Part shown: positions 14,433 through 36,491 of the stretch, in pieces
Numbering within the stretch: the stretch's first letter is position 1
Layout: the number at the start of each line of letters is the position of its first letter
Sequence record: NC_019767.1
From: Escherichia phage HK544
DNA length: 40,155 bases
Direction: 5' to 3' (one strand)
Program-made: the position numbers and the translations under genes
The notes under the pieces: generated by a model
What the model saw: only the letters and a program-made list of their open reading frames with translations
What the model was told of the DNA's origin: nothing
The model's database searches: none

Positions 14433-17400
14433 ATGGCAACTGCAACCGCGATTAAAGGCCGCAAAGGCGGTAGTTCAAAGACACGCACTCCAACTGAACA
14501 GCCCGATGATCTGCAGTCAGTTGCGAAGGCGAAAATTTTAATCGCCCTTGGCGAGGGCGAGTTCTCCGGGCAATTAACCGGCAAAGATATCTACCTGGAC
14601 GGAACAGCGCTGGAGAACGCCGACGGCTCCCAAAACTTCAGCGGCGTTACGTGGGAATTTCGCGCGGGAACGCAGGCGCAAAAATATATTCAGGGTATTC
14701 CCGGTACCGAAAACGAGATCAGCGTAGGAACTGAGGTATCAAGTGCCACAGCCTGGACGCGCACGTTTACCAATACGCAGCTTTCAGCAGTTCGCCTGCG
14801 TCTTAAATGGCCCTCGCTTTTCAAACAGGAAGACGACGGCGATCTGGTGGGTTACTCGGTCAATTATGCGATTGACCTGCAGACTGACGGCGGCACATGG
14901 CAGACGGTACTCAATACCAGCGTGACCGGCAAAACGACGTCTGGTTATGAGCGCAGCCACCGTATCGATTTACCGCAGGCTGGCAGCACCTGGACAATAC
15001 GTCTGCGTAAGATTACCTCTGACGCCAACAGCGCGAAGATCGGCGACACGATGATGCTGCAGAGCTTCACCGAGGTGATTGACGCCAAACTGCGCTACCC
15101 GAACACCGCGCTGCTCTACGTCGAATTCGACTCAAGCCAGTTCAACGGCTCTATTCCTCAAATTTCATGCGAACCGCGCGGCCGCGTTATCCGCGTTCCA
15201 GATACCTACGACCCTGAAACCCGCACTTATAGCGGTACATGGACCGGTGCGTTTAAGTGGGCATGGACGGATAACCCTGCGTGGATTTTTTACGACCTGG
15301 TTGTTTCTGACCGGTTCGGCCTTGGGCACCGTTTGACCGCTGCGAATATTGATAAATGGACGCTTTATCAGGTTGCTCAGTATTGTGATCAGATGGTGCC
15401 AGACGGCAAAGGGGGCAACGGTACAGAACCACGTTATACCTGCAACGTGTACATCCAGGATCGGAACGACGCCTACACAGTCCTGCGTGATTTTGCCGCT
15501 ATCTTCCGTGGCATGACCTACTGGGGCGGGGATCAGATTGTGGCCCTGGCTGACATGCCGCGCGATGTTGATTACAGCTATACGCGCGCTAACGTTGTTG
15601 GCGGTCGCTTCACCTATTCGAGCAGCACCACGAAAAGCCGCTACACCACAGCGCTGGTTTCATGGTCAGACCCGGGTAACGCTTATGCCGACGCGATGGA
15701 GCCGGTATTTGAGCAGGCGCTGGTGGCGCGGTACGGCTTCAATCAGCTGGAAATGACAGCCATCGGCTGCACCAGGCAGTCAGAGGCGAACCGAAAGGGG
15801 CGCTGGGGTATTCTCACCAATAACAAGGATCGCGTTGTTTCGTTTGATGTCGGGCTGGACGGAAACATTCCGCAGCCGGGCTACATCATCGCCGTGGCAG
15901 ACGAGCTGCTTTCCGGAAAGGTTATGGGCGGCCGCATCAGCGCCGTTAACGGTCGCGTTATCAAACTTGACCGCGTAGCTGATGCAACACCAGGTGATCG
16001 CCTTATTCTCAACCTTCCCTCCGGAGCGTCGCAGAGCAGGACCATTCAGGCCGTGAACGGGGAATCAGTCACAGTCACCACGGCATACAGTGAGACGCCA
16101 CAGGCCGAAGCTGTTTGGGTGGTTGAATCTGACGAGCTCTACGCGCAGCAGTATCGAGTTGTCAGCGTTTCCGATAACAATGATGGCACTTTCTCGATTA
16201 CCGGCGCATGGCACGACCCGGATAAATATGCCCGTATCGATACCGGAGCCATCATTGACCAACGGCCGGTGAGCGTGATCCCGCCGGGCAACCAGTCGCC
16301 GCCTACGAATATCGTGATCAGCTCGTTTTCCGTGGTTCAGCAAAATATCAGCGTCGAAACAATGCGCGTGAGCTGGTACCAGGCGCAGAACGCTATCGCC
16401 TATGAAGCACAATGGCGCCGCAACGACGGGAACTGGGTTAACGTGCCGCGCACCTCCACCACGTCATTCGACGTCCCGGGGATTTATGCCGGGCGCTACC
16501 TGGTGCGGGTGCGCGCAATCAATGCCGCAGAAATTTCATCCGGATGGGGCTATTCAGAAGAGAAAACGCTGACGGGTAAAGTGGGCAATCCACCGAAGCC
16601 GGTTGGCTTTATCGCCTCTGAAAACGTGGTGTTCGGTATCGAGCTGAACTGGGGATTCCCGGCGAATACCGACGACACGCTGAAGACGGAAATTCAGTAC
16701 AGCCTGACCGGGAGCGAAGATGATGCCATTCTTCTGAGCGATGTTCCCTATCCGCAGCGCAAGTATCAGCAGATGGGCCTGAAGGCGGGGCAAATTTTCT
16801 GGTACCGGGCGCAGCTGGTGGACAGGACAGGCAATGAGTCGGGTTATACCGACTGGGTACGTGGACAGGCCAGTATCGATGTGTCGGATATCACCGATGT
16901 TATCCTGGAGGACATTAAAGAATCGGACACGTTCAAGGAACTGATCGAAAGCGCAGTAGACAGCAACGAAAAAATTGCTGGTATGGCTGACGATATCAGA
17001 CAGAACGCTGACGATCTGGAGCAACAGGCGCTGGCCATCAAGGAAAACGCCGATGGGCTCGCCCAGGCCGAGGTGAAGATTGACGAAATCTCTGTCTCGA
17101 TGGATGGCATGACGGGAGGCGTTAAAAACTCCTCTATCGCGGTTATTCAGAACAGCCTCGCGCAGGTCACCAGCCGTCGATCCCAGACAGCCACCAACGC
17201 CGGGAACAGCGCCAGCATCGACCGTATCGATACCACCATTGCAGATACCAGCCAGGCGGTTGCCCGTGCGCTGGTTACGCTTGATGCTTCTGCCGGTGGT
17301 AATGTCTCAAACGCGACCGATCTCACCGAAACCCTTGCTGATTTCACGCAGGCCTCGGCCACGAAAATCAACTCCCTGACGGTTACGGTAAACGGCCAGA

Positions 17401-17888
17401 CAGCGGCTATTAACCAGACCGCGCAGGCGGTGGCTGATGTGAACGGTAACCTCAGCGCGATGTACAACATCAAGGTTGGTGTCTCCAGCAACGGGCAGTA
17501 TTACGCCGCGGGGATGGGTATCGGCGTGGAGAATACGCCATCCGGCATGCAGTCGCAGGTTATCTTCCTGGCTGATCGCTTCGCCGTCACCACGGCAGCC
17601 GGAAATAGCGTGGCTTTGCCGTTTGTGATCCAGAATGGACAGACATTCATCCGGGCCAGTTTCATCCAGGACGGCACTATCAGCAACGCAAAGATTGGTA
17701 ATTTTATCCAGTCGAACAATTATGTTGCTGGTTCTGCTGGCTGGAAGCTTGATAAAGGGGGGACGTTTGAGAACTACGGTTCGACTGCTGGTGAGGGAGC
17801 CATGAAACTGACAAATCAGACGATCAGCGTCAAAGATGGCAGTAATGTTCTTAGGGTGCAGGTTGGCCGATTAACGGGAGTATTCTGA
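14433..17888 (+). CDS. J: central tail fibre / host specificity protein J
   Basis: 1151 aa; blocks such as KTTSGYERSHRIDL and GTEPRYTCNVYIQ resemble lambda J as recalled; C-terminal region appears divergent. Confidence 0.85.
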   Translation: MATATAIKGRKGGSSKTRTPTEQPDDLQSVAKAKILIALGEGEFSGQLTGKDIYLDGTALENADGSQNFSGVTWEFRAGTQAQKYIQGIPGTENEISVGTEVSSATAWTRTFTNTQLSAVRLRLKWPSLFKQEDDGDLVGYSVNYAIDLQTDGGTWQTVLNTSVTGKTTSGYERSHRIDLPQAGSTWTIRLRKITSDANSAKIGDTMMLQSFTEVIDAKLRYPNTALLYVEFDSSQFNGSIPQISCEPRGRVIRVPDTYDPETRTYSGTWTGAFKWAWTDNPAWIFYDLVVSDRFGLGHRLTAANIDKWTLYQVAQYCDQMVPDGKGGNGTEPRYTCNVYIQDRNDAYTVLRDFAAIFRGMTYWGGDQIVALADMPRDVDYSYTRANVVGGRFTYSSSTTKSRYTTALVSWSDPGNAYADAMEPVFEQALVARYGFNQLEMTAIGCTRQSEANRKGRWGILTNNKDRVVSFDVGLDGNIPQPGYIIAVADELLSGKVMGGRISAVNGRVIKLDRVADATPGDRLILNLPSGASQSRTIQAVNGESVTVTTAYSETPQAEAVWVVESDELYAQQYRVVSVSDNNDGTFSITGAWHDPDKYARIDTGAIIDQRPVSVIPPGNQSPPTNIVISSFSVVQQNISVETMRVSWYQAQNAIAYEAQWRRNDGNWVNVPRTSTTSFDVPGIYAGRYLVRVRAINAAEISSGWGYSEEKTLTGKVGNPPKPVGFIASENVVFGIELNWGFPANTDDTLKTEIQYSLTGSEDDAILLSDVPYPQRKYQQMGLKAGQIFWYRAQLVDRTGNESGYTDWVRGQASIDVSDITDVILEDIKESDTFKELIESAVDSNEKIAGMADDIRQNADDLEQQALAIKENADGLAQAEVKIDEISVSMDGMTGGVKNSSIAVIQNSLAQVTSRRSQTATNAGNSASIDRIDTTIADTSQAVARALVTLDASAGGNVSNATDLTETLADFTQASATKINSLTVTVNGQTAAINQTAQAVADVNGNLSAMYNIKVGVSSNGQYYAAGMGIGVENTPSGMQSQVIFLADRFAVTTAAGNSVALPFVIQNGQTFIRASFIQDGTISNAKIGNFIQSNNYVAGSAGWKLDKGGTFENYGSTAGEGAMKLTNQTISVKDGSNVLRVQVGRLTGVF

Positions 17889-17889
17889 A

Positions 17890-18192
17890 ATGGCTTATGG
17901 AATACAGACCTGGGATGCTTCAGGAAAACCCAACAACTATGGCATCAAACCCGTTTCCGTCGTTGGGCGAATACAGCTGGCTGCCGGGCAAACCTCCGGC
18001 AGCTGGTCTTTTACGGTGCCCTCAGGAATGAAAGTTGGTTTTGTTCTTTCACTTGATGAAGGAGGTAACAGCGTAGGGCGGCGCATTGTCGCGTCAGGGA
18101 GCACAATAACCGTAAGCGCTGCATCTTCTGTAGGTCTGGGTAATTATCCGGCCTCAAAGTGTGAAGTGGTCGTTTTCATGGAGAAAGCATAA
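17890..18192 (+). CDS. hypothetical protein downstream of J (likely tail-associated)
   Basis: 100 aa, start 2 nt after J stop; shares a WD(A/S)SGK motif with the next ORF. Confidence 0.4.
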   Translation: MAYGIQTWDASGKPNNYGIKPVSVVGRIQLAAGQTSGSWSFTVPSGMKVGFVLSLDEGGNSVGRRIVASGSTITVSAASSVGLGNYPASKCEVVVFMEKA

Positions 18193-18830
18193 TGGCCGAA
18201 TTTGGCGCGATGATATTAATGGACAACGGGAACCCATTTGTAACGCCCCAGTCAACGCCTTTTTGTCTTTACGGCAAGTACACTTTCAACTCCTCTGCTA
18301 ATGGCAGTTCGCAGCAGGTTGCTCAGAATATTGCATTAAATGCTGACTACCCTGTGATGGTATTTATCAGGACCACAAATACCGCCCAGCCCACGCCAGT
18401 AATATCTTACCGGAACGGCGGAAATATATATGTCGCGGGGGTTAATCCCTATAACCAGAGCTTCACGTTAACCGCATATATTTTTGCCATATTTCCCCAG
18501 ATGTTACCGAAATGGGGGATGGCCATCTGGGATTCGAGCGGGAAGCTGGTACTCACTAATGAGTCCCGCGTGCTGTCAGACTTGCAGACAATCGGAACGC
18601 CTGGAGCAAACGGCGGGATTAACATTGACCAGACGCTTGATGGTTCATGGGCAGTGGCTCCATCAAGGCTGGGGCAAGTGAACAGAAACGACGCTTACTC
18701 ATCTTGTAGGTATTCAGGCACAAGTACAAGAATAAACGCCGGTACAGCCGCAAATACACCTGGCGGTGCTGGAGGGGTGATAAATAATGGAATTATCCTG
18801 ACAGCAATTAAAACAGACGCCTATGATTGA
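18192..18830 (+). CDS. hypothetical protein downstream of J (likely tail-associated)
   Basis: 212 aa, TAATG overlap with the previous ORF; AIWDSSGK motif; Gly/Asn-rich C-terminus. Confidence 0.4.
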   Translation: MAEFGAMILMDNGNPFVTPQSTPFCLYGKYTFNSSANGSSQQVAQNIALNADYPVMVFIRTTNTAQPTPVISYRNGGNIYVAGVNPYNQSFTLTAYIFAIFPQMLPKWGMAIWDSSGKLVLTNESRVLSDLQTIGTPGANGGINIDQTLDGSWAVAPSRLGQVNRNDAYSSCRYSGTSTRINAGTAANTPGGAGGVINNGIILTAIKTDAYD

Positions 18831-18937
18831 TTATTTTGAGCGATCAATAACAAATAATTTATCTATCTAATCAATTATACCCATCGATTATGTATTGGTA
18901 TCTTCGAAGCTACTGAATACCTCTGGATACTATCAAA

Positions 18938-19171
18938 ATGAAAAGGCTAATTATCTGCATAGCGGGCGCTTTAATGCTGTCTGGTTGCGCTGGTGTACTT
19001 GAGAAACAGAAACCGATTTGCAGCGGCACGGCATATATGGGTGGCCATGAGAATACCGTTATGATTTACGCCGTTCGAAAGCAAAACAACCAGACGCAAT
19101 ACCGGGCCGGATATCCCTTTAACTGGCGCTGGGTAAGTGCGAACACATTCACAAGCACGACATGTAAATAA
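18938..19171 (+). CDS. small lipoprotein moron, possibly a Cor-like exclusion protein
   Basis: 77 aa with signal peptide and lipobox LSGC (Cys17); AT-rich promoter-like leader 18831-18937; own terminator; location next to tail fibre genes is where cor-type genes are found. Confidence 0.45.
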   Translation: MKRLIICIAGALMLSGCAGVLEKQKPICSGTAYMGGHENTVMIYAVRKQNNQTQYRAGYPFNWRWVSANTFTSTTCK

Positions 19172-19185
19172 CTCATGATTTTCAA

Positions 19186-19217
19186 TGCAAACCTCGCCTC
19201 GGCGGGGTTTTTTATTG
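19186..19217 (+). terminator. rho-independent terminator after the lipoprotein gene
   Basis: CCTCGCC-TCGG-CGGGG hairpin followed by TTTTTTATT. Confidence 0.45.
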
Positions 19218-19229
19218 CCTGGAGAAAAT

Positions 19230-20504
19230 ATGCTTTATAACACTGGAACCATCGCCATTAACGGAAACAGCGCCACCGGCACGGGCACGAACTGGACGGC
19301 ACCCGCCAGCCAGGTTCGCGCTGGTCAGACGATTATCGTGATGTCTAACCCGGTGCAGCTGTTTCAGATTTCATCCGTGAACAGCGCCACGTCAATGACG
19401 GTTACTCCAGCTGCTTCCCCGGCGCTGAGCGGCCAGAAGTACGGCATTCTGGTATCAGACATTATCTCGGTTGATGGACTGGCACAGGCCATGTCTCAGC
19501 TCATCAATGAGTATGACGAGAATATCGGTGCGTGGGAAACGTTCGCCAGTACCTCAGCGAACCAACTGGTCACTGTGACAATCAACGGCACCAGCCTCAG
19601 CATTCCTGCCATCGGTGGTCTCGCCCGGAAAGGGGCAAATAGCGATATCACAGAGCTGAAAGGGCTAAGTACAGCATTGAGTATTGACCAGGGTGGGACC
19701 GGCGCAAAAACCAAAGAAGCCGCTCGCACAAACCTCGGTTTAGGAAGTAGTGCCACTCGTGACGCGTATAGCACTTCTGGTTCAATGCTCGCAGTCGGAG
19801 ATTTCGGGGTCGGCAGCAATAGTATGAATAGGATTACTCAGGATGACCGCGTAGGGGCTGGGTTCTATCGATCATTAATGTTACTTGGTGGCTTAGGCGA
19901 TAACGTTTCGTTGATCGAAGTGCCGTATGATGCCAACACCATGTATCAGTTAATCATCCCAACTATTATCGCCACAAAGCCTAAGTTGTACTTAAGAACG
20001 TTGAGTAGTGATGAGACTTATAACGGGCAACTTGTCGAATTTTACAGCACAGGAAATACTACAAAGGCCAGTGACGGCACACTAAAAGTAGCATCGCCAG
20101 TCGTCAAAATATTTAGCGATGGTTCATTCCATTTGAATGATGAGTCAGCAGGATGCACTGTAACCCGTATTAATACCGGAGCATATCTCATTGAAGGCTG
20201 TATGGGGCTTAATGCTGATGCCGCGTGGGGAGGCATAGACGGCGGTTTTGATATCCCCACTGACCGCAACAAGCAGCCGCTGATTTGGCTCGATTATGAA
20301 GTTAATGCGGACGGTTCCATTTTGGTTAGAACTTATCATCGCACATATCCAACCGCCCCAGTATTCGCCAGAAATGAACGAGACGGAATCGAAGAGGGGG
20401 AGCCGGTAGATATCCCTGCCGATCAGTTCGTTTCCGTGCGCGTAGAAATGCCGGCTGACTCTGTTTACAGCCGGAGCTTGCATGAGCGCGGGAATGAGAG
20501 CTAA
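19230..20504 (+). CDS. tail fibre protein
   Basis: About 424 aa from ATG 19230 (SD GGAG); the ORF-track start at 19185 lies inside the terminator. Contains a QGGTGAKT...ARTNLGLGS motif typical of tail fibres. Confidence 0.55.
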   Translation: MLYNTGTIAINGNSATGTGTNWTAPASQVRAGQTIIVMSNPVQLFQISSVNSATSMTVTPAASPALSGQKYGILVSDIISVDGLAQAMSQLINEYDENIGAWETFASTSANQLVTVTINGTSLSIPAIGGLARKGANSDITELKGLSTALSIDQGGTGAKTKEAARTNLGLGSSATRDAYSTSGSMLAVGDFGVGSNSMNRITQDDRVGAGFYRSLMLLGGLGDNVSLIEVPYDANTMYQLIIPTIIATKPKLYLRTLSSDETYNGQLVEFYSTGNTTKASDGTLKVASPVVKIFSDGSFHLNDESAGCTVTRINTGAYLIEGCMGLNADAAWGGIDGGFDIPTDRNKQPLIWLDYEVNADGSILVRTYHRTYPTAPVFARNERDGIEEGEPVDIPADQFVSVRVEMPADSVYSRSLHERGNES

Positions 20505-20570
20505 TCATGATTTTGTCCATTTTTTTTTGATAAGCTTGGTGCAAATCAGCCAGAAAAAAAAGTACACAAC

Positions 20571-20969
20571 ATGAGCCAGTTAACGTTACATGAATTCGCA
20601 TCGATAAATTGTAAACTGAAAGATATCAGCGACACATGGTCAGATTTATGGGTTCTTCTGCATATCTTACCGGTCGGCATTGGTAGGGTGGTCAGTCTGC
20701 GTTACGGTAACCTTATAGGCGACTCCCTTGTCGTGGAGGCGAACGGAAGATTTGAAGAGAAAATCCTATCTGTACCAGCCGTTGTTCGCCACATTGTACA
20801 GAGGCGCAGGGACAAATATCCCCACGATGTTTACGTTTTTCAGAGTCACTCCAACCGGGTCAAATTTCAGCAAAGGCCAGTAACAGTTATTGCATTCAAC
20901 CAGGCATTGAAGATTGCCTCCAAAGGAGTGACGGATAAGGTGGTGAGCAGCAAAAGTGCTCGATGGTAG
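20571..20969 (+). CDS. hypothetical protein (cargo in the tail-fibre to int interval)
   Basis: 132-aa ORF; no confident family assignment; faint resemblance to the region between box I and box II of tyrosine recombinases but without the catalytic residues. Confidence 0.3.
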   Translation: MSQLTLHEFASINCKLKDISDTWSDLWVLLHILPVGIGRVVSLRYGNLIGDSLVVEANGRFEEKILSVPAVVRHIVQRRRDKYPHDVYVFQSHSNRVKFQQRPVTVIAFNQALKIASKGVTDKVVSSKSARW

Positions 20970-21370: not shown

Positions 21371-22549
21371 ATGGCTATAAGCGACACAAAACTGCGTACT
21401 ATTTATGGTAAACCATATTCGGGCCCACAAGAAGTGGCTGATGCCGATGGCCTCAGCGTACGAATTTCACCTAAGGGGGTCATCCAGTTCCAGTACCGCT
21501 ATCGCTGGCATGGCAAGCCTAATCGACTTGGGCTTGGTCGATACCCATCCCTGTCTTTGAAGGATGCCAGACAGATCACTGCTGACTTGCGAAAGCTCTA
21601 TTTCTCAGGAACGGATCCACGCACTTATTTTGAAGAGAAGGTGGAGAACTCCATGACGGTCGCCCAGTGTCTCGACTACTGGTTCGACAACTACGTCTCT
21701 ACAACTCTCAGAGAAAAGACCCAGGCACTTTACCGATCAACGGTTATGAAGCGCATGCATGACGCCTTTCCTAATCGTCCGGCATCTTCTATCACGGTTA
21801 AGCAATGGGTTGACCTGCTTACCGAAGAAGAAAGAGATAATCCACGCCGAGCAAGGCAGGTGCTAAGTCAACTAAGATCAGCAATAAGTTGGTGCATGCG
21901 GCGTCAGTTGATAGATAGTTGCGCAATTATGAGCATCCAACCAAGGGACTTCGGCTCCCGCGCTGAGGTAGGGGAGCGGGTACTGTCGTATCACGAACTG
22001 GCTAAGATTTGGCTTGCTATTGAAAGAAGCCGTGCGTCTACGTCAAATAAGCTCCTTCATCAGATGCTTATGCTGTGGGGGTCGAGGCTCTCAGAGCTTA
22101 GGCTGGCAACAAAGACAGAATTTGACCTGCTGGACAACGTATGGACCGTACCGAAAGAGCATAGCAAGATGGGTAATGTTATCCGCCGTCCAATCTTCGA
22201 ACAAATTAAGCCTTTTCTCGAAAAGGCCATGACAACATACAATGATGTTCTTTTCCCTGGAGAAGACATAAACAAACCGATCAGCATCGCTGCAGCCAAC
22301 CGATTCGTAAATAGAATAAGGGGAGGGATGGACATAGGTTACTGGCGAACACATGATTTCAGAAGAACGCTTGTTACACGGCTGTCCGAGATGAATGTCG
22401 AGCCCCATGTTACTGAGCGAATGCTCGGTCATGAACTTGGCGGGATAATGTCCGTGTACAATAAACACGACTGGATAGAGGCTCAGCGCAAAGCGTATGA
22501 GCTTCACGCTGATAAATTGTTCTGGCACATCAGGAACATTTCTGGTTAA
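21371..22549 (+). CDS. int: tyrosine site-specific integrase
   Basis: 392 aa; box II HDFRRT, MLGH and probable catalytic Tyr in SVYNKHDW near the C-terminus. Confidence 0.85.
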   Translation: MAISDTKLRTIYGKPYSGPQEVADADGLSVRISPKGVIQFQYRYRWHGKPNRLGLGRYPSLSLKDARQITADLRKLYFSGTDPRTYFEEKVENSMTVAQCLDYWFDNYVSTTLREKTQALYRSTVMKRMHDAFPNRPASSITVKQWVDLLTEEERDNPRRARQVLSQLRSAISWCMRRQLIDSCAIMSIQPRDFGSRAEVGERVLSYHELAKIWLAIERSRASTSNKLLHQMLMLWGSRLSELRLATKTEFDLLDNVWTVPKEHSKMGNVIRRPIFEQIKPFLEKAMTTYNDVLFPGEDINKPISIAAANRFVNRIRGGMDIGYWRTHDFRRTLVTRLSEMNVEPHVTERMLGHELGGIMSVYNKHDWIEAQRKAYELHADKLFWHIRNISG

Positions 22550-25389: not shown

Positions 25390-26358
25390 TTAGTAGGTTA
25401 TTTTTGTTGCGAATACTTCGCCTTTTACGATGGCTGTTATGATATTTTTAGCAACATCTTCTGATGCACCAACCTTGATAAGGTCAGCAAGTATTTTGTT
25501 ATTTACTTCTTTCCGGTGCGCTTTATCCTTTGCTCTACGCTCTTCTTCTTCCTTGATTCTTTTTTCTTCTGCTATTCTGGCTTGCTCTTTTGCTTCAGCA
25601 TCGCGACGGATTCGTTCAGCCTCCTCCTGTGCTTTTCTGCGTTCTGCTTCAATTGCTGCCTGCTTTTCTCTTTCAGCTCGTTCTGCTGCCTCTTTTGCTT
25701 CGCGCTGTGCTCGCTGCTCGGCTTCAATGCGTTCACGCTCTGCACGTTCCGCTGCGGCCTTAGCTTCTGCTTCTCGCCTTGCTGCTGCTTCAATTTCGGC
25801 TTTTGCCTTTGCTTCGGCTTCTGCTCTGGCTTTCTCTTCAGCTTCTCTTTTTAAGCGTTCTTCATGCTCTCGCTTTTCCTGCTCCGCTTTGAGTCTTGCC
25901 TCTTCTCTTTTGCGGTCAAATTCGCGATCCATCAAAATAGCTATTTCATGGTCAGACTCAATTTGCTTTGCGAGAGCTTCAGCTGCTGCCTTAGCTTCTT
26001 CTTCGGCTTTAATCCGCGCCTGTTCTTCCTCATAATCAGTAAGAGGCTGGCGCGCCTTGGCTTTCAGTTCATCAAGGCGATCACGCACTGTCTTGCGGTT
26101 GGCATCAATTAGCTTTGGAATTTCCTTCAGTTCAGCAACAAGGTCTTTGCCAAGACCATCGAGATATGTTTTCGTCTGCGCAACTTTATACGCCAGAGAA
26201 GCGATCTCCTTTCTGCCCTTTGCCGTTGTGATATCAGGCACAAAGGACATAACTTCACGTTCAACCTTTTGAAGGATTTCTTCAATCTGGTCTGCAGACT
26301 GAAATACAGTCATTGCATTTGCTTTTTCAATAACAACTAAATCTGTTACTTCACTCAT
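25390..26358 (-). CDS. coiled-coil protein with long low-complexity Ala/Glu/Lys/Arg repeat region
   Basis: 322 aa from MSEVTDLV (SD GGAGGA); central roughly 150 aa is (A/E/K/R)-rich repetitive coiled-coil; function unknown. Confidence 0.5.
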   Translation of the reverse strand: MSEVTDLVVIEKANAMTVFQSADQIEEILQKVEREVMSFVPDITTAKGRKEIASLAYKVAQTKTYLDGLGKDLVAELKEIPKLIDANRKTVRDRLDELKAKARQPLTDYEEEQARIKAEEEAKAAAEALAKQIESDHEIAILMDREFDRKREEARLKAEQEKREHEERLKREAEEKARAEAEAKAKAEIEAAARREAEAKAAAERAERERIEAEQRAQREAKEAAERAEREKQAAIEAERRKAQEEAERIRRDAEAKEQARIAEEKRIKEEEERRAKDKAHRKEVNNKILADLIKVGASEDVAKNIITAIVKGEVFATKITY

Positions 26359-26370
26359 ATATCCTCCGTC

Positions 26371-26398
26371 AAAAAAAACTGCCCTCACACTGGAGGGC
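26371..26398 (-). terminator. intrinsic terminator in the leftward operon (tL-like)
   Basis: On the - strand: GCCCTCCAGTGTGAGGGC hairpin followed by TTTTTTTT, directly upstream of the coiled-coil gene SD. Confidence 0.45.
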
Positions 26399-26534
26399 AA
26401 AGAAGATTTCCAATAATCAGAACAAGTCGGCTCCTGTTTAGTTACGAGCGACATTGCTCCGTGTATTCACTCGTTGGAATGAATACACAGTGCAGTGTTT
26501 ATTCTGTTGTTTATGCCAAAAATGAAGGCCACCA

Positions 26535-27724: not shown

Positions 27725-28276
27725 TTACTGACCTTTCTTAAGGTACAAGTTTATTAGGAAAAATATAGTTGGCATAGCAAGCGAGGCCAGGAGAACCCCG
27801 AGCATCCATACTTTTACATCTGCTATCTTGGTTTCCAAAGCGGAAAATTTAGCTTCAAAGTAGTCAACCGATGGTTTCTTAGATAATGAAGCATCAAAAT
27901 CCAGGCTCTTCTGTAAAAGTACAGCGGTGTCTCTTTTGGCGTCAGTAGAATCAGAAGATATTTTCCGGGTATCCTCTTTAATTCCTGCCATGCTGCTCTT
28001 GATGTGCGCAACTTCAGCTTCAAGAACTGCTAATCGCTTATCCATGTCGTCGCCTCCATCATCACTTGTTGTTTGAATGATCTCAGTATCATCCATCACA
28101 ACCGATGTGACAATCCGTTTTTCTTTATCTGAAGCAGCAACAGAACAAGCTTTCATCAAGAGCGTTGCTTGGCTTGATGCTACAGAAGAAAATTCCAGCC
28201 CTACTGTAGAGCCATTCTTATCAGAGTAAGCAATTACTAGCTTTCCCTCATCCAAAGATGATTGAGCTGCATTCAT
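27725..28276 (-). CDS. novel tail-anchored membrane protein in the rexB position (coiled-coil plus C-terminal TM helix)
   Basis: 183 aa; ATG 6 nt after upstream gene stop; central coiled-coil (KRLAVLEAEVAHIKSSMAGIKEDTRK); C-terminal hydrophobic helix VWMLGVLLASLAMPTIFFLINLYL then KKGQ; not RexB-like in size or topology. Confidence 0.55.
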   Translation of the reverse strand: MNAAQSSLDEGKLVIAYSDKNGSTVGLEFSSVASSQATLLMKACSVAASDKEKRIVTSVVMDDTEIIQTTSDDGGDDMDKRLAVLEAEVAHIKSSMAGIKEDTRKISSDSTDAKRDTAVLLQKSLDFDASLSKKPSVDYFEAKFSALETKIADVKVWMLGVLLASLAMPTIFFLINLYLKKGQ

Positions 28277-28282
28277 CAGCTT

Positions 28283-28564
28283 TTATTCCTCGAACATGCT
28301 TTTCAAGGACTGATAGAAATCGAAGGCCTTCTGTTTACTTAAAGTCACGGACGCAACCTTAGTGCGCTGCATTCCTGCCACTGCGATTTCGCCATTCATA
28401 TGGCCGATGACAGGGGTGCTATTGAGAAAAACGAAGTTAAAAACTTCGTAGCCATTGTTATCCGTTCCGATGGTTACAACCCCATCAGCATTAGTTTCAA
28501 TATAATTTTTGGACTCCAGCACATCATTGATATGTGCTAAGGAAACTTCTTGTTTATCGCTCAC
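28283..28564 (-). CDS. novel small soluble protein in the rexA position
   Basis: 93 aa; GTG start with SD GGAGAA 122 nt downstream of cI; motif GVVTIGTDNNGYEV resembles KLVIAYSDKNGSTV at the N-terminus of the downstream gene. Confidence 0.5.
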   Translation of the reverse strand: MSDKQEVSLAHINDVLESKNYIETNADGVVTIGTDNNGYEVFNFVFLNSTPVIGHMNGEIAVAGMQRTKVASVTLSKQKAFDFYQSLKSMFEE

Positions 28565-35228: not shown

Positions 35229-35871
35229 TGGCAGCAAATACCGAAATATTTGGGTAGTTGGCGATCTGCACGGATGCTACACGAACCTGATGAAAAAACT
35301 GGAGACGATAGGATTCGACACCAAAAAAGACCTGCTTATCTCGGTTGGCGATTTGGTCGATCGCGGTACAGAGAACGTCGAATGCCTGGAATTAATCACA
35401 TTCCCCTGGTTCAGAGCTGTACGTGGAAACCATGAGCAAATGATGATTGATGGCTTATCAGAGCGCGGAAACGTCAATCACTGGATGCTTAATGGCGGTG
35501 GCTGGTTCTTTAATCTCGATTACGACAAAGAAATTCTGGCTAAAGCTCTTGCCCATAAAGCAGATGAACTTCCGTTAATCATCGAACTGGTGAGCAAAGA
35601 TAAAAAATATGTCATCTGCCACGCCGATTATCCTTGTGACGAATACGAGTTTGGAAAGCCAGTTGATCATCAGCAGGTAATCTGGAACCGCGAACGAATC
35701 AGCAACTCACAAGACGGGATCGTGAAAGAAATCAAAGGCGCGGACACGTTCATCTTTGGTCATACGCCAGCAGTGAAACCACTCAAGTTTGCCAACCAGA
35801 TGTATATCGATACCGGCGCAGTGTTCTGCGGAAACCTCACATTGATTCAAGTACAGGGAGAAGGCGCATGA
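35206..35871 (+). CDS. ninI: Ser/Thr protein phosphatase NinI (lambda PPase)
   Basis: 221 aa from MRYYEKIDG; metallophosphatase motifs GDLHG, GDLVDRG, GNHE. Confidence 0.9.
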
Positions 35872-36491
35872 GACTCGAAAGCGTGGCTAAATTTCATTCG
35901 CCAAAAAGCCCGATGATGAGTGACTCACCACGGGCCACGGCTTCTGACTCTCTTTCTGGTACTGATGTGATGGCTGCTATGGGGATGGCGCAATCACAAG
36001 CCGGATTCGGAATGGCTGCATTCTGCGGTAAGCACGAACTCAGCCAGAACGACAAACAAAAGGCTATCAACTATCTGATGCAATTTGCACACAAGGTATC
36101 GGGGAAATACCGTGGTGTGGCAAAGCTTGAAGGAAATACTAAGGCAAAGGTACTGCAAGTGCTTGCAACATTCGCTTATGCGGATTATTGCCGTAGTGCC
36201 GCGACGCCGGGCGCAAGATGCAGAGATTGTCACGGTACAGGCCGTGCGGTTGATATAGCAAAAACAGAGCAGTGGGGGAGAGTTGTTGAGAAAGAATGCG
36301 GAAGATGCAAAGGCGTCGGCTATTCAAGGATGCCAGCAAGCGCCGCATATCGCGCTGTAACGATGCTAATCCCAAATCTTACTCAACCCACCTGGTCACG
36401 CACTGTTAAGCCGCTGTATGACGCTCTGGTGGTGCAATGCCACAAAGAAGAGTCAATCGCAGACAACATTTTGAATGCGGTCACACGTTAG
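35868..36491 (+). CDS. Q: late antiterminator Q
   Basis: 207 aa, [34 protein letters not shown]...; matches lambda Q as recalled; ATGA overlap with ninI. Confidence 0.95.

Follow-up and report, generated by a model that had tools for sequence, protein, structure and literature searches.

Cor provides a textbook example of both lysogenic conversion and the exclusion of superinfecting phages. The passages of PMC3594210 that cite Uc-Mass 2004 describe the Cor proteins of HK022, N15 and phi80 as guarding lysogens from FhuA-dependent phages by inactivating FhuA. Those passages, together with the part of PMC2885432 that deals with Cor, attribute both exclusion and reduced FhuA transport to the HK022 protein (identical to the one described here) and to the proteins of phi80, N15 and mEp167, with a fall in ferrichrome uptake and a gain of protection from colicin M. 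Lysogenic conversion by cor is classically represented by phi80 and N15, whose lysogens resist T1 (PMC2885432, PMC3594210). The same family, in the same three-gene cassette after a J-like gene, is found in T1, other Drexlerviridae and Dhillonvirus phages, for which FhuA is the receptor (PMC8594841, PMC13164509). Unlike the phages named above these are lytic, their sequences are much more divergent, and in T1 the cor gene is encoded on the other strand and runs convergently to the two small genes. An ‘extended cor cassette’ has been tied to FhuA in T1, HK022, N15, ES18 and phi80 (PMC13164509), FhuA use by cor-cassette phages has been described (PMC13164509, PMC9311878), and the region downstream of gpJ has been presented as a hypervariable receptor-binding locus with a cognate exclusion protein (PMC8594841; bioRxiv 10.64898/2026.04.02.716166). 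A further FhuA-directed lipoprotein, T5 Llp (PDB 8A60, the FhuA-Llp complex, and 7QJF), falls outside the Cor HMM family and, unlike the prophage-encoded Cor proteins, is expressed early in lytic infection. Llp binds the periplasmic face or plug of FhuA with EL7 and EL8 folded inward, a mechanism whose extension to Cor has been proposed (PMC9586334).

The DNA analysed here (the window; 40,155 nucleotides of Escherichia phage HK544, NC_019767.1) comprises a complete lambdoid temperate phage of the HK022/HK97 type. Its genes are arranged in the order terminase, head, tail and J; two post-J genes, cor and the side tail fibre gene stf; integrase; Erf, SSB, N and CI; CII, O and P; the nin genes and Q; and the lysis genes. 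No tRNA or Rfam element was detected within the window. The genome is a new mosaic of HK022/HK97-type modules, with mEp234 as the best match (85% coverage, and 96.6% identity over the first 25 kb).

A sequence-only reading of this DNA had singled out a 77-residue lipoprotein with an LSGC lipobox as a Cor-like exclusion candidate, and both the open reading frame and the lipobox were recovered where that reading had placed them. The coding sequence runs from an ATG at 18938 to 19171 on the plus strand and specifies 77 amino acids and a stop codon; the full protein reads MKRLIICIAGALMLSGCAGVLEKQKPICSGTAYMGGHENTVMIYAVRKQNNQTQYRAGYPFNWRWVSANTFTSTTCK. It matches the NCBIfam equivalog model NF047972, ‘phage exclusion lipoprotein Cor’, at 138.8 bits (E 4.2e-41), a score more than four-fold above the curated cut-off of 31 bits, with residues 1-76 aligned to positions 1-76 of the 78-position profile. 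PHROG 1119, ‘Cor superinfection exclusion protein’, is matched as well (E 2.4e-37), while no model in Pfam or PADLOC corresponds to Cor. A tblastn search with the protein returned 235 matching records among 50,697 phage records. Together with the two HMM matches, this indicates that 18938-19171 is not a chance open reading frame.

Among these phage records, the Cor proteins of HK022, HK75, HK446, HK106, mEpX1 and mEp235 are 100% identical to that of HK544 at the amino acid level. Over 18700-19300 the DNA is 100% identical in HK542 and 99.7% identical in HK022, so that HK544 has in common with the HK022 group not only the gene but also its flanking DNA (99.7-100% identity), its position between gp26 and an stf-like gene, and its terminator; the surrounding genome, in contrast, is a different mosaic, with a different integrase module that lies on the plus strand. 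The GenBank entry of HK022 describes the identical gene (gp27) as ‘cor protein; moron gene product; gp27; phage exclusion’, and where this DNA occurs in the chromosomes of E. coli, RefSeq gives it the label ‘cor: phage exclusion lipoprotein Cor’. The identity with HK022 Cor, the NF047972 match and this label turn the earlier candidate into an assigned gene. The Cor protein of phi80 is 79% identical and has the same length, lipobox and cysteines, as well as the same order of J, gp22, gp23, cor and stf; the 21% of residues that differ are mostly found at positions 31-45. In GenBank the phi80 gene carries the note ‘blocks TonB-dependent outer membrane FhuA receptor’. The T1 protein is 35.5% identical over its full length. 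The sequence-only reading had pointed to Cor- and Llp-type proteins for comparison: the match to Cor is strong, and a sequence match to Llp is absent.

Among complete E. coli genomes this cor variant is rare, with the 18831-19217 query matching just 9 of 5,426 at megablast sensitivity. One of the nine is the laboratory strain XL10-Gold, whose copy is 79% identical and presumably represents a phi80-type cor carried by the phi80 prophage of this strain. These comparisons identify 18938-19171 as cor of a lambdoid phage of the HK022 type, and both this identification and the function of the gene are very secure. Since the protein is identical to the published and annotated HK022 Cor, the gene is already known, as are the lipoprotein and the arrangement of promoter and terminator around it, and the HK544 copy carries little weight as a discovery.

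The 107 nucleotides that precede cor (18831-18937, plus strand) are markedly AT-rich, with a GC content of 29-30% compared to approximately 46-55% in the flanking genes, and a gap of approximately 105-110 nucleotides is found at the equivalent location in prophages of Citrobacter, Klebsiella and Enterobacter. The leader had been described beforehand as AT-rich and promoter-like. The first half of this description holds as it stands, while the second now takes the form of a candidate -10 element identified by comparison, with a poor -35 and no hit in our promoter scan. The comparison is with phi80, whose record annotates a cor promoter (both the -35 and the -10 signals), a transcription start and a terminator, along with the signal peptide, the mature peptide and the acylated cysteine. 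The annotated phi80 -10 signal, TGGTATTGT, aligns with TGGTATCTT at 18896-18904 on the plus strand of the window, which we designate the candidate extended -10. Since the phi80 transcription start is annotated 26 nucleotides before the ATG, transcription of the HK544 gene is predicted to start near 18912, giving a 5′UTR of approximately 26 nucleotides. In an alignment of leaders from five genera, covering the window, phi80 and the Enterobacter, Citrobacter and Klebsiella prophages, G18897, T18899, A18900, T18901 and T18904 are invariant, and the stretch around this G..TAT..T pattern has a mean column identity of 75%.

The alternative is that cor lacks its own promoter, in which case the AT-rich leader would be a mere spacer and the gene would not strictly be a moron. 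The poor -35 region would fit this, as would the outcome of a consensus promoter scan over 3.6 kb, which returned a single site, compared to a mean of 6.0 in shuffled sequence, and did not flag TGGTATCTT or any other part of the leader. With a yield below that of shuffled sequence, however, the scan has no statistical weight, and the spacer reading would leave unaccounted for the -35, -10 and transcription start that phi80 annotates at aligned positions, the invariance of the G..TAT..T bases in divergent genera and the annotation of HK022 Cor as a moron product. In T1, moreover, cor is convergent to its neighbours and must therefore have its own promoter. We consider the absence of a cor promoter very improbable.

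The one site that the scan did return, CTGACA-18-TATGAT at 18798-18827 (plus strand), resembles the sigma-70 consensus with 10 of 12 matches and lies within the 3′ end of the upstream 212-aa gene. Neither hexamer is conserved in phi80, where the equivalents are CCGCGA and TATGAC, and we have set the site aside as the main cor promoter for that reason; it is possibly a second promoter, although weakly supported. The putative extended -10 TGGTATCTT is the better candidate of the two.

Since FhuA is iron-regulated, the leader is AT-rich and GATAAT-like strings are present in phi80, we also considered regulation of cor by Fur, which would link it to the expression of fhuA. Within the leader, the highest-scoring match to the 19-bp Fur consensus reached 11/19, a value that 79% of shuffled sequences equalled or exceeded, and the best match in the Citrobacter leader scored 12/19, with 47% of shuffles as good; Fur regulation was therefore rejected. 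A conserved CGATCAAT/ATTGATC motif is present at 18821-18870, at the junction between the stop codon of the 212-aa gene and the cor leader. It forms an 8-bp inverted repeat in phi80, several of its bases are invariant in the five genera, and it fails the Fur consensus test. GATC (Dam) sites upstream of cor number three in phi80 and one in the window.

Downstream, cor is followed by a predicted rho-independent terminator at 19189-19216 on the plus strand, in agreement with the earlier statement that the gene has a terminator of its own. Its 9-bp GC-rich stem (AAACCUCGC/GCGGGGUUU, 19189-19210) encloses the loop CUCG and is followed by the rest of the U-run, the T-run in the DNA extending to approximately 19216; the folding energy is -16.1 kcal/mol (z -2.66). 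The same terminator is annotated as rho-independent in HK542, and a near-identical one is annotated in phi80. A hairpin follows cor in every homolog examined, even though the stem sequence differs in Citrobacter, Klebsiella and T1: in the Enterobacter, Citrobacter and Klebsiella prophages it is accompanied by a U-run, whereas in T1, where cor is convergent, there is no U-run on the plus strand.

The side tail fibre gene stf begins beyond the terminator (19230-20504, plus strand; 424 aa) and is identified by Pfam Phage_tail_C_2 (E 2.5e-60) and PHROG 1591 (E 1e-173). Its most plausible start is the ATG at 19230, which is preceded by a GGAG Shine-Dalgarno sequence at 19221-19224 and is the start from which HK022 is annotated. 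The public records are inconsistent on this point, since HK542 stf is annotated from a TTG equivalent to 19215 and HK022 stf from the ATG at 19230. The start given in the list of open reading frames, ATG 19185, would cross the cor terminator.

A moron, in the sense of Juhala et al. 2000, is said to be an independent transcription unit inserted in a phage operon. The sequence-only reading had presented the gene as such an independently expressed unit; the terminator and the HK022 label ‘moron gene product’ agree with this, and the promoter is a candidate by sequence comparison. With its extended -10, short leader, coding sequence and terminator, cor would constitute a self-contained unit, and such a unit should be expressible from a repressed prophage, that is, in lysogenic conversion. 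A Q-like antiterminator is encoded at 35868-36491, and, with stf lying beyond the terminator, we infer that late transcripts read through it. Cor would then be made both from the prophage and late in lysis, when it would keep progeny from adsorbing to cell debris.

How these two phases are weighted is open to another interpretation, in which the role of cor is mainly lytic: transcribed with the late operon, it would protect progeny from FhuA on debris and block late superinfection, with prophage expression being minor. Cor does lie in the late tail operon, on the same strand and downstream of the Q-type antiterminator; the strictly lytic phages T1 and T5 carry cor or llp; a debris-protection rationale has been put forward (PMC9586334, PMC13164509); and the Shine-Dalgarno sequence of the HK544 gene is weak, as is its -35 region. 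Conservation of the extended -10 in five genera and maintenance of the terminator despite differing sequences nevertheless argue for selection on an autonomous transcription unit, and the cor conversion by phi80 and N15 that makes lysogens T1-resistant (PMC2885432, PMC3594210) is hard to reconcile with minor prophage expression. The two roles are compatible, and we find it unlikely that the lytic one dominates.

The product of cor has the features of a lipoprotein precursor. The N-terminus, MKRLIICIAGALMLSGC|AGV..., contains K2 and R3, an 11-residue hydrophobic core and L14-S15-G16-C17. Residues 1-16 (18938-18985, plus strand) are predicted to form the lipoprotein signal peptide, in line with the lipobox rule and the phi80 annotation, and Cys17 (codon 18986-18988, plus strand) is the predicted lipid-attachment site. 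A lipobox check had been suggested for the gene, and the established PROSITE PS51257-type rule is satisfied, at the level of sequence, by the HK544 protein and by all of its 52 aligned homologs (52/52). Under the Lol sorting rule, a residue other than Asp at position +2 directs a lipoprotein to the outer membrane. This position is Ala in HK544 Cor and Asp in none of the 52 homologs, which predicts sorting of the protein to the outer membrane. The 77-residue precursor would thus be exported, lipid-modified on Cys17 and cleaved by signal peptidase II.

The mature part is strongly constrained. All 52 homologs have exactly three cysteines in the mature protein, and C17, C28, C76, G35, I43, Y44, G58, P60 and F61 are invariant. 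A YRAGYPFNWRW core is nearly invariant, with Y55, R56, A57, Y59, N62, W63 and W65 each present in at least 90% of the 52 sequences. An AlphaFold2 model built on the 52-homolog alignment has a mean pLDDT of 83.8, exceeding 90 for residues 31-77, and takes the form of a small five-stranded beta-barrel. The 61-residue mature protein would fold as such a barrel, which is probably stapled by a Cys28-Cys76 disulphide.

We compared Cor with T5 Llp at both the sequence and the structure level. BLASTP produced no alignment between the two proteins, and hhalign aligned only residues 1-31, the signal peptide region (probability 77%). A search of the PDB with the Cor profile returned no Llp chain at E <= 10, and alignments of the mature Cor and Llp sequences did not outscore shuffled controls (z 0.7-1.6). 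We therefore reject homology of the two proteins at the sequence level, and the fold comparison provides the only link. When the Cor model was searched against the PDB with Foldseek, the matches were weak and of a generic Tudor/SH3-like kind; Llp (8A60_B) ranked 42nd and was not singled out. In the fold comparison, no structure in the entire PDB matches the Cor model better than FhuA-bound Llp. Both precursors are 77 residues long and, by eye, have the same lipobox position and the same spacing of two cysteines. The model thus suggests that Cor has an Llp-like fold, and predicted Cor structures, including that of HK022, have been described as sharing the Llp architecture (bioRxiv 10.64898/2026.03.26.714494).

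By analogy with T5 Llp, and given this predicted similarity of fold, Cor would most likely attach to FhuA at the periplasmic face or at the plug and close the extracellular loops by an allosteric effect. [quoted passage not shown] This view draws on an interaction of Cor with several other outer-membrane proteins (Arguijo-Hernandez 2018, as reported in PMC9311878) and would sit well with the lack of detectable sequence homology to Llp and with a 2026 preprint in which the molecular mechanism by which Cor works is described as still to be elucidated (10.64898/2026.03.26.714494). It is more difficult to square with FhuA-bound Llp being the best PDB match of the Cor model, with the common length, lipobox position and spacing of the two further cysteines, with an AF3 model in which a T1-like Cor docks against FhuA from the periplasmic side (ipTM 0.84; PMC13164509), and with Llp requiring no other factor in vitro (PMC9586334). 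On balance, we regard a dependence of Cor on other outer-membrane proteins as improbable, and favour periplasmic binding to FhuA on the strength of fold and analogy.

The genes upstream of cor bear directly on the choice of receptor. J, the central tail fibre or tip protein (14433-17888, plus strand; 1151 aa; Pfam FNIII-A_GpJ, Phage-tail_3 and Phage_Tail_Tip), is identical over its last ~150 residues to J of phi80 and HK022; it is 41% identical overall to the J-like protein of T1, with the C-terminal tip conserved. J is followed by a 100-aa gene of the HK022 gp25/phi80 gp22 type (17890-18192, plus strand; PHROG 557, E 2.4e-36), the product of which is 100% identical to phi80 gp22 and 70-75% identical to its counterparts in T1-like and Dhillonvirus phages, and then by a 212-aa gene of the HK022 gp26/phi80 gp23 type (18192-18830, plus strand; PHROG 425, E 3e-74). 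The 212-aa product is 99.5% identical in HK446, HK106 and mEp235; in T1-like phages, among them IME18, the receptor of which is FhuA (PMC8594841), identity across the whole protein is approximately 50%. Neither post-J gene belongs to a Pfam or NCBIfam family; recent papers have put forward loci of this kind as the source of the actual receptor-binding proteins. The similarity to IME18 makes the 212-aa protein a candidate FhuA receptor-binding or accessory protein.

As the sequence-only reading had it, cor is located between the post-J genes (17890-18192 and 18192-18830) upstream and the tail fibre gene (19230-20504) downstream. The order J, ~100 aa, ~215 aa, cor and tail fibre is kept in Citrobacter, Klebsiella and Enterobacter prophages, and the cassette is syntenic in HK022 and phi80 as well; T1 also carries it, with cor convergent. 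Both post-J genes accompany cor in every locus examined, all of which were cor-carrying loci, and this constant company is suggestive of a cassette of three genes, as opposed to cor inserted on its own. Judged by synteny and similarity, the post-J genes belong with cor in a conserved FhuA host-recognition and exclusion cassette that is common to T1-like phages. The cassette of J tip, 100-aa gene, 212-aa gene and cor would mark HK544 as FhuA-dependent.

A further step would be to regard cor as belonging to a four-part FhuA module that is inherited together, and not as a moron standing by itself. The module would consist of the C-terminal tip of J, the 100-aa protein, the 212-aa protein and Cor; in it the post-J pair, and not J as in lambda, would be the true FhuA-binding proteins of HK022/phi80-type phages, and Cor variants would co-evolve with the post-J pair. 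We offer this tentatively, as a possibility that we would sooner doubt than accept. Since both a four-part module and the question of how Cor acts have already been raised for T1-like phages, it would add little even if true.

Taken together, these results leave us highly confident that the HK544 gene encodes an HK022-type Cor, that is, an FhuA-inactivating exclusion lipoprotein, probably Llp-like, which would be expressed from the prophage and late in infection. The earlier proposal that the lipoprotein blocks the receptor of the phage itself is upheld for Cor by the literature (PMC3594210), with FhuA as the specific receptor; OmpC and LamB are thus no longer open as receptor candidates. Mature Cor would inactivate FhuA, which is both the ferrichrome transporter and the receptor of the phage’s own tip (J and the post-J proteins). 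Phages of the HK022-like, phi80, N15, T1 and T5 types would then be unable to adsorb or inject, and both ferrichrome uptake and colicin M entry would drop. HK544 lysogens are accordingly predicted to resist T1, T5, phi80, phages of the HK022 type and colicin M, and to pay for this with some loss of ferrichrome uptake. The practical value lies in annotation and prediction, for example in the choice of phages for cocktails and in the reading of contaminant strains that are found to be ‘T1-resistant’. With 61 residues, the well-behaved mature protein would lend itself to structural work on how Cor inactivates FhuA.

Several other features of the HK544 genome were recorded. The integrase gene (Arm-DNA-bind_3 and Phage_integrase; 21371-22549, plus strand) lies on the same strand as the late genes, whereas in HK022 and HK542 it lies on the opposite strand. 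From approximately 20994 onward the best matches are mEp234 and Shigella phage Sf101, which indicates that the integration module has been swapped. In the early left operon, a 354-aa open reading frame (25390-26454, minus strand) matches only PHROGs 1376 and 21365, both of unknown function, and has no counterpart in Pfam or PADLOC. Two open reading frames of 183 aa (PHROG 12602) and 93 aa, neither of them matched in Pfam or PADLOC, lie at 27725-28564 on the minus strand, flanked by the N-like antiterminator and CI; in other lambdoid phages the same position holds rexAB or sieB-type exclusion genes. Lastly, a 132-aa open reading frame (20571-20969, plus strand) is located between stf and the integrase gene. 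It matches PHROG 19751 (E 2.8e-69) and nothing in Pfam, NCBIfam or PADLOC, is preceded by a stretch of 35% GC at 20500-20650, and is followed by a terminator-like hairpin on the minus strand (20981-20959); it may be another accessory or moron-type gene.
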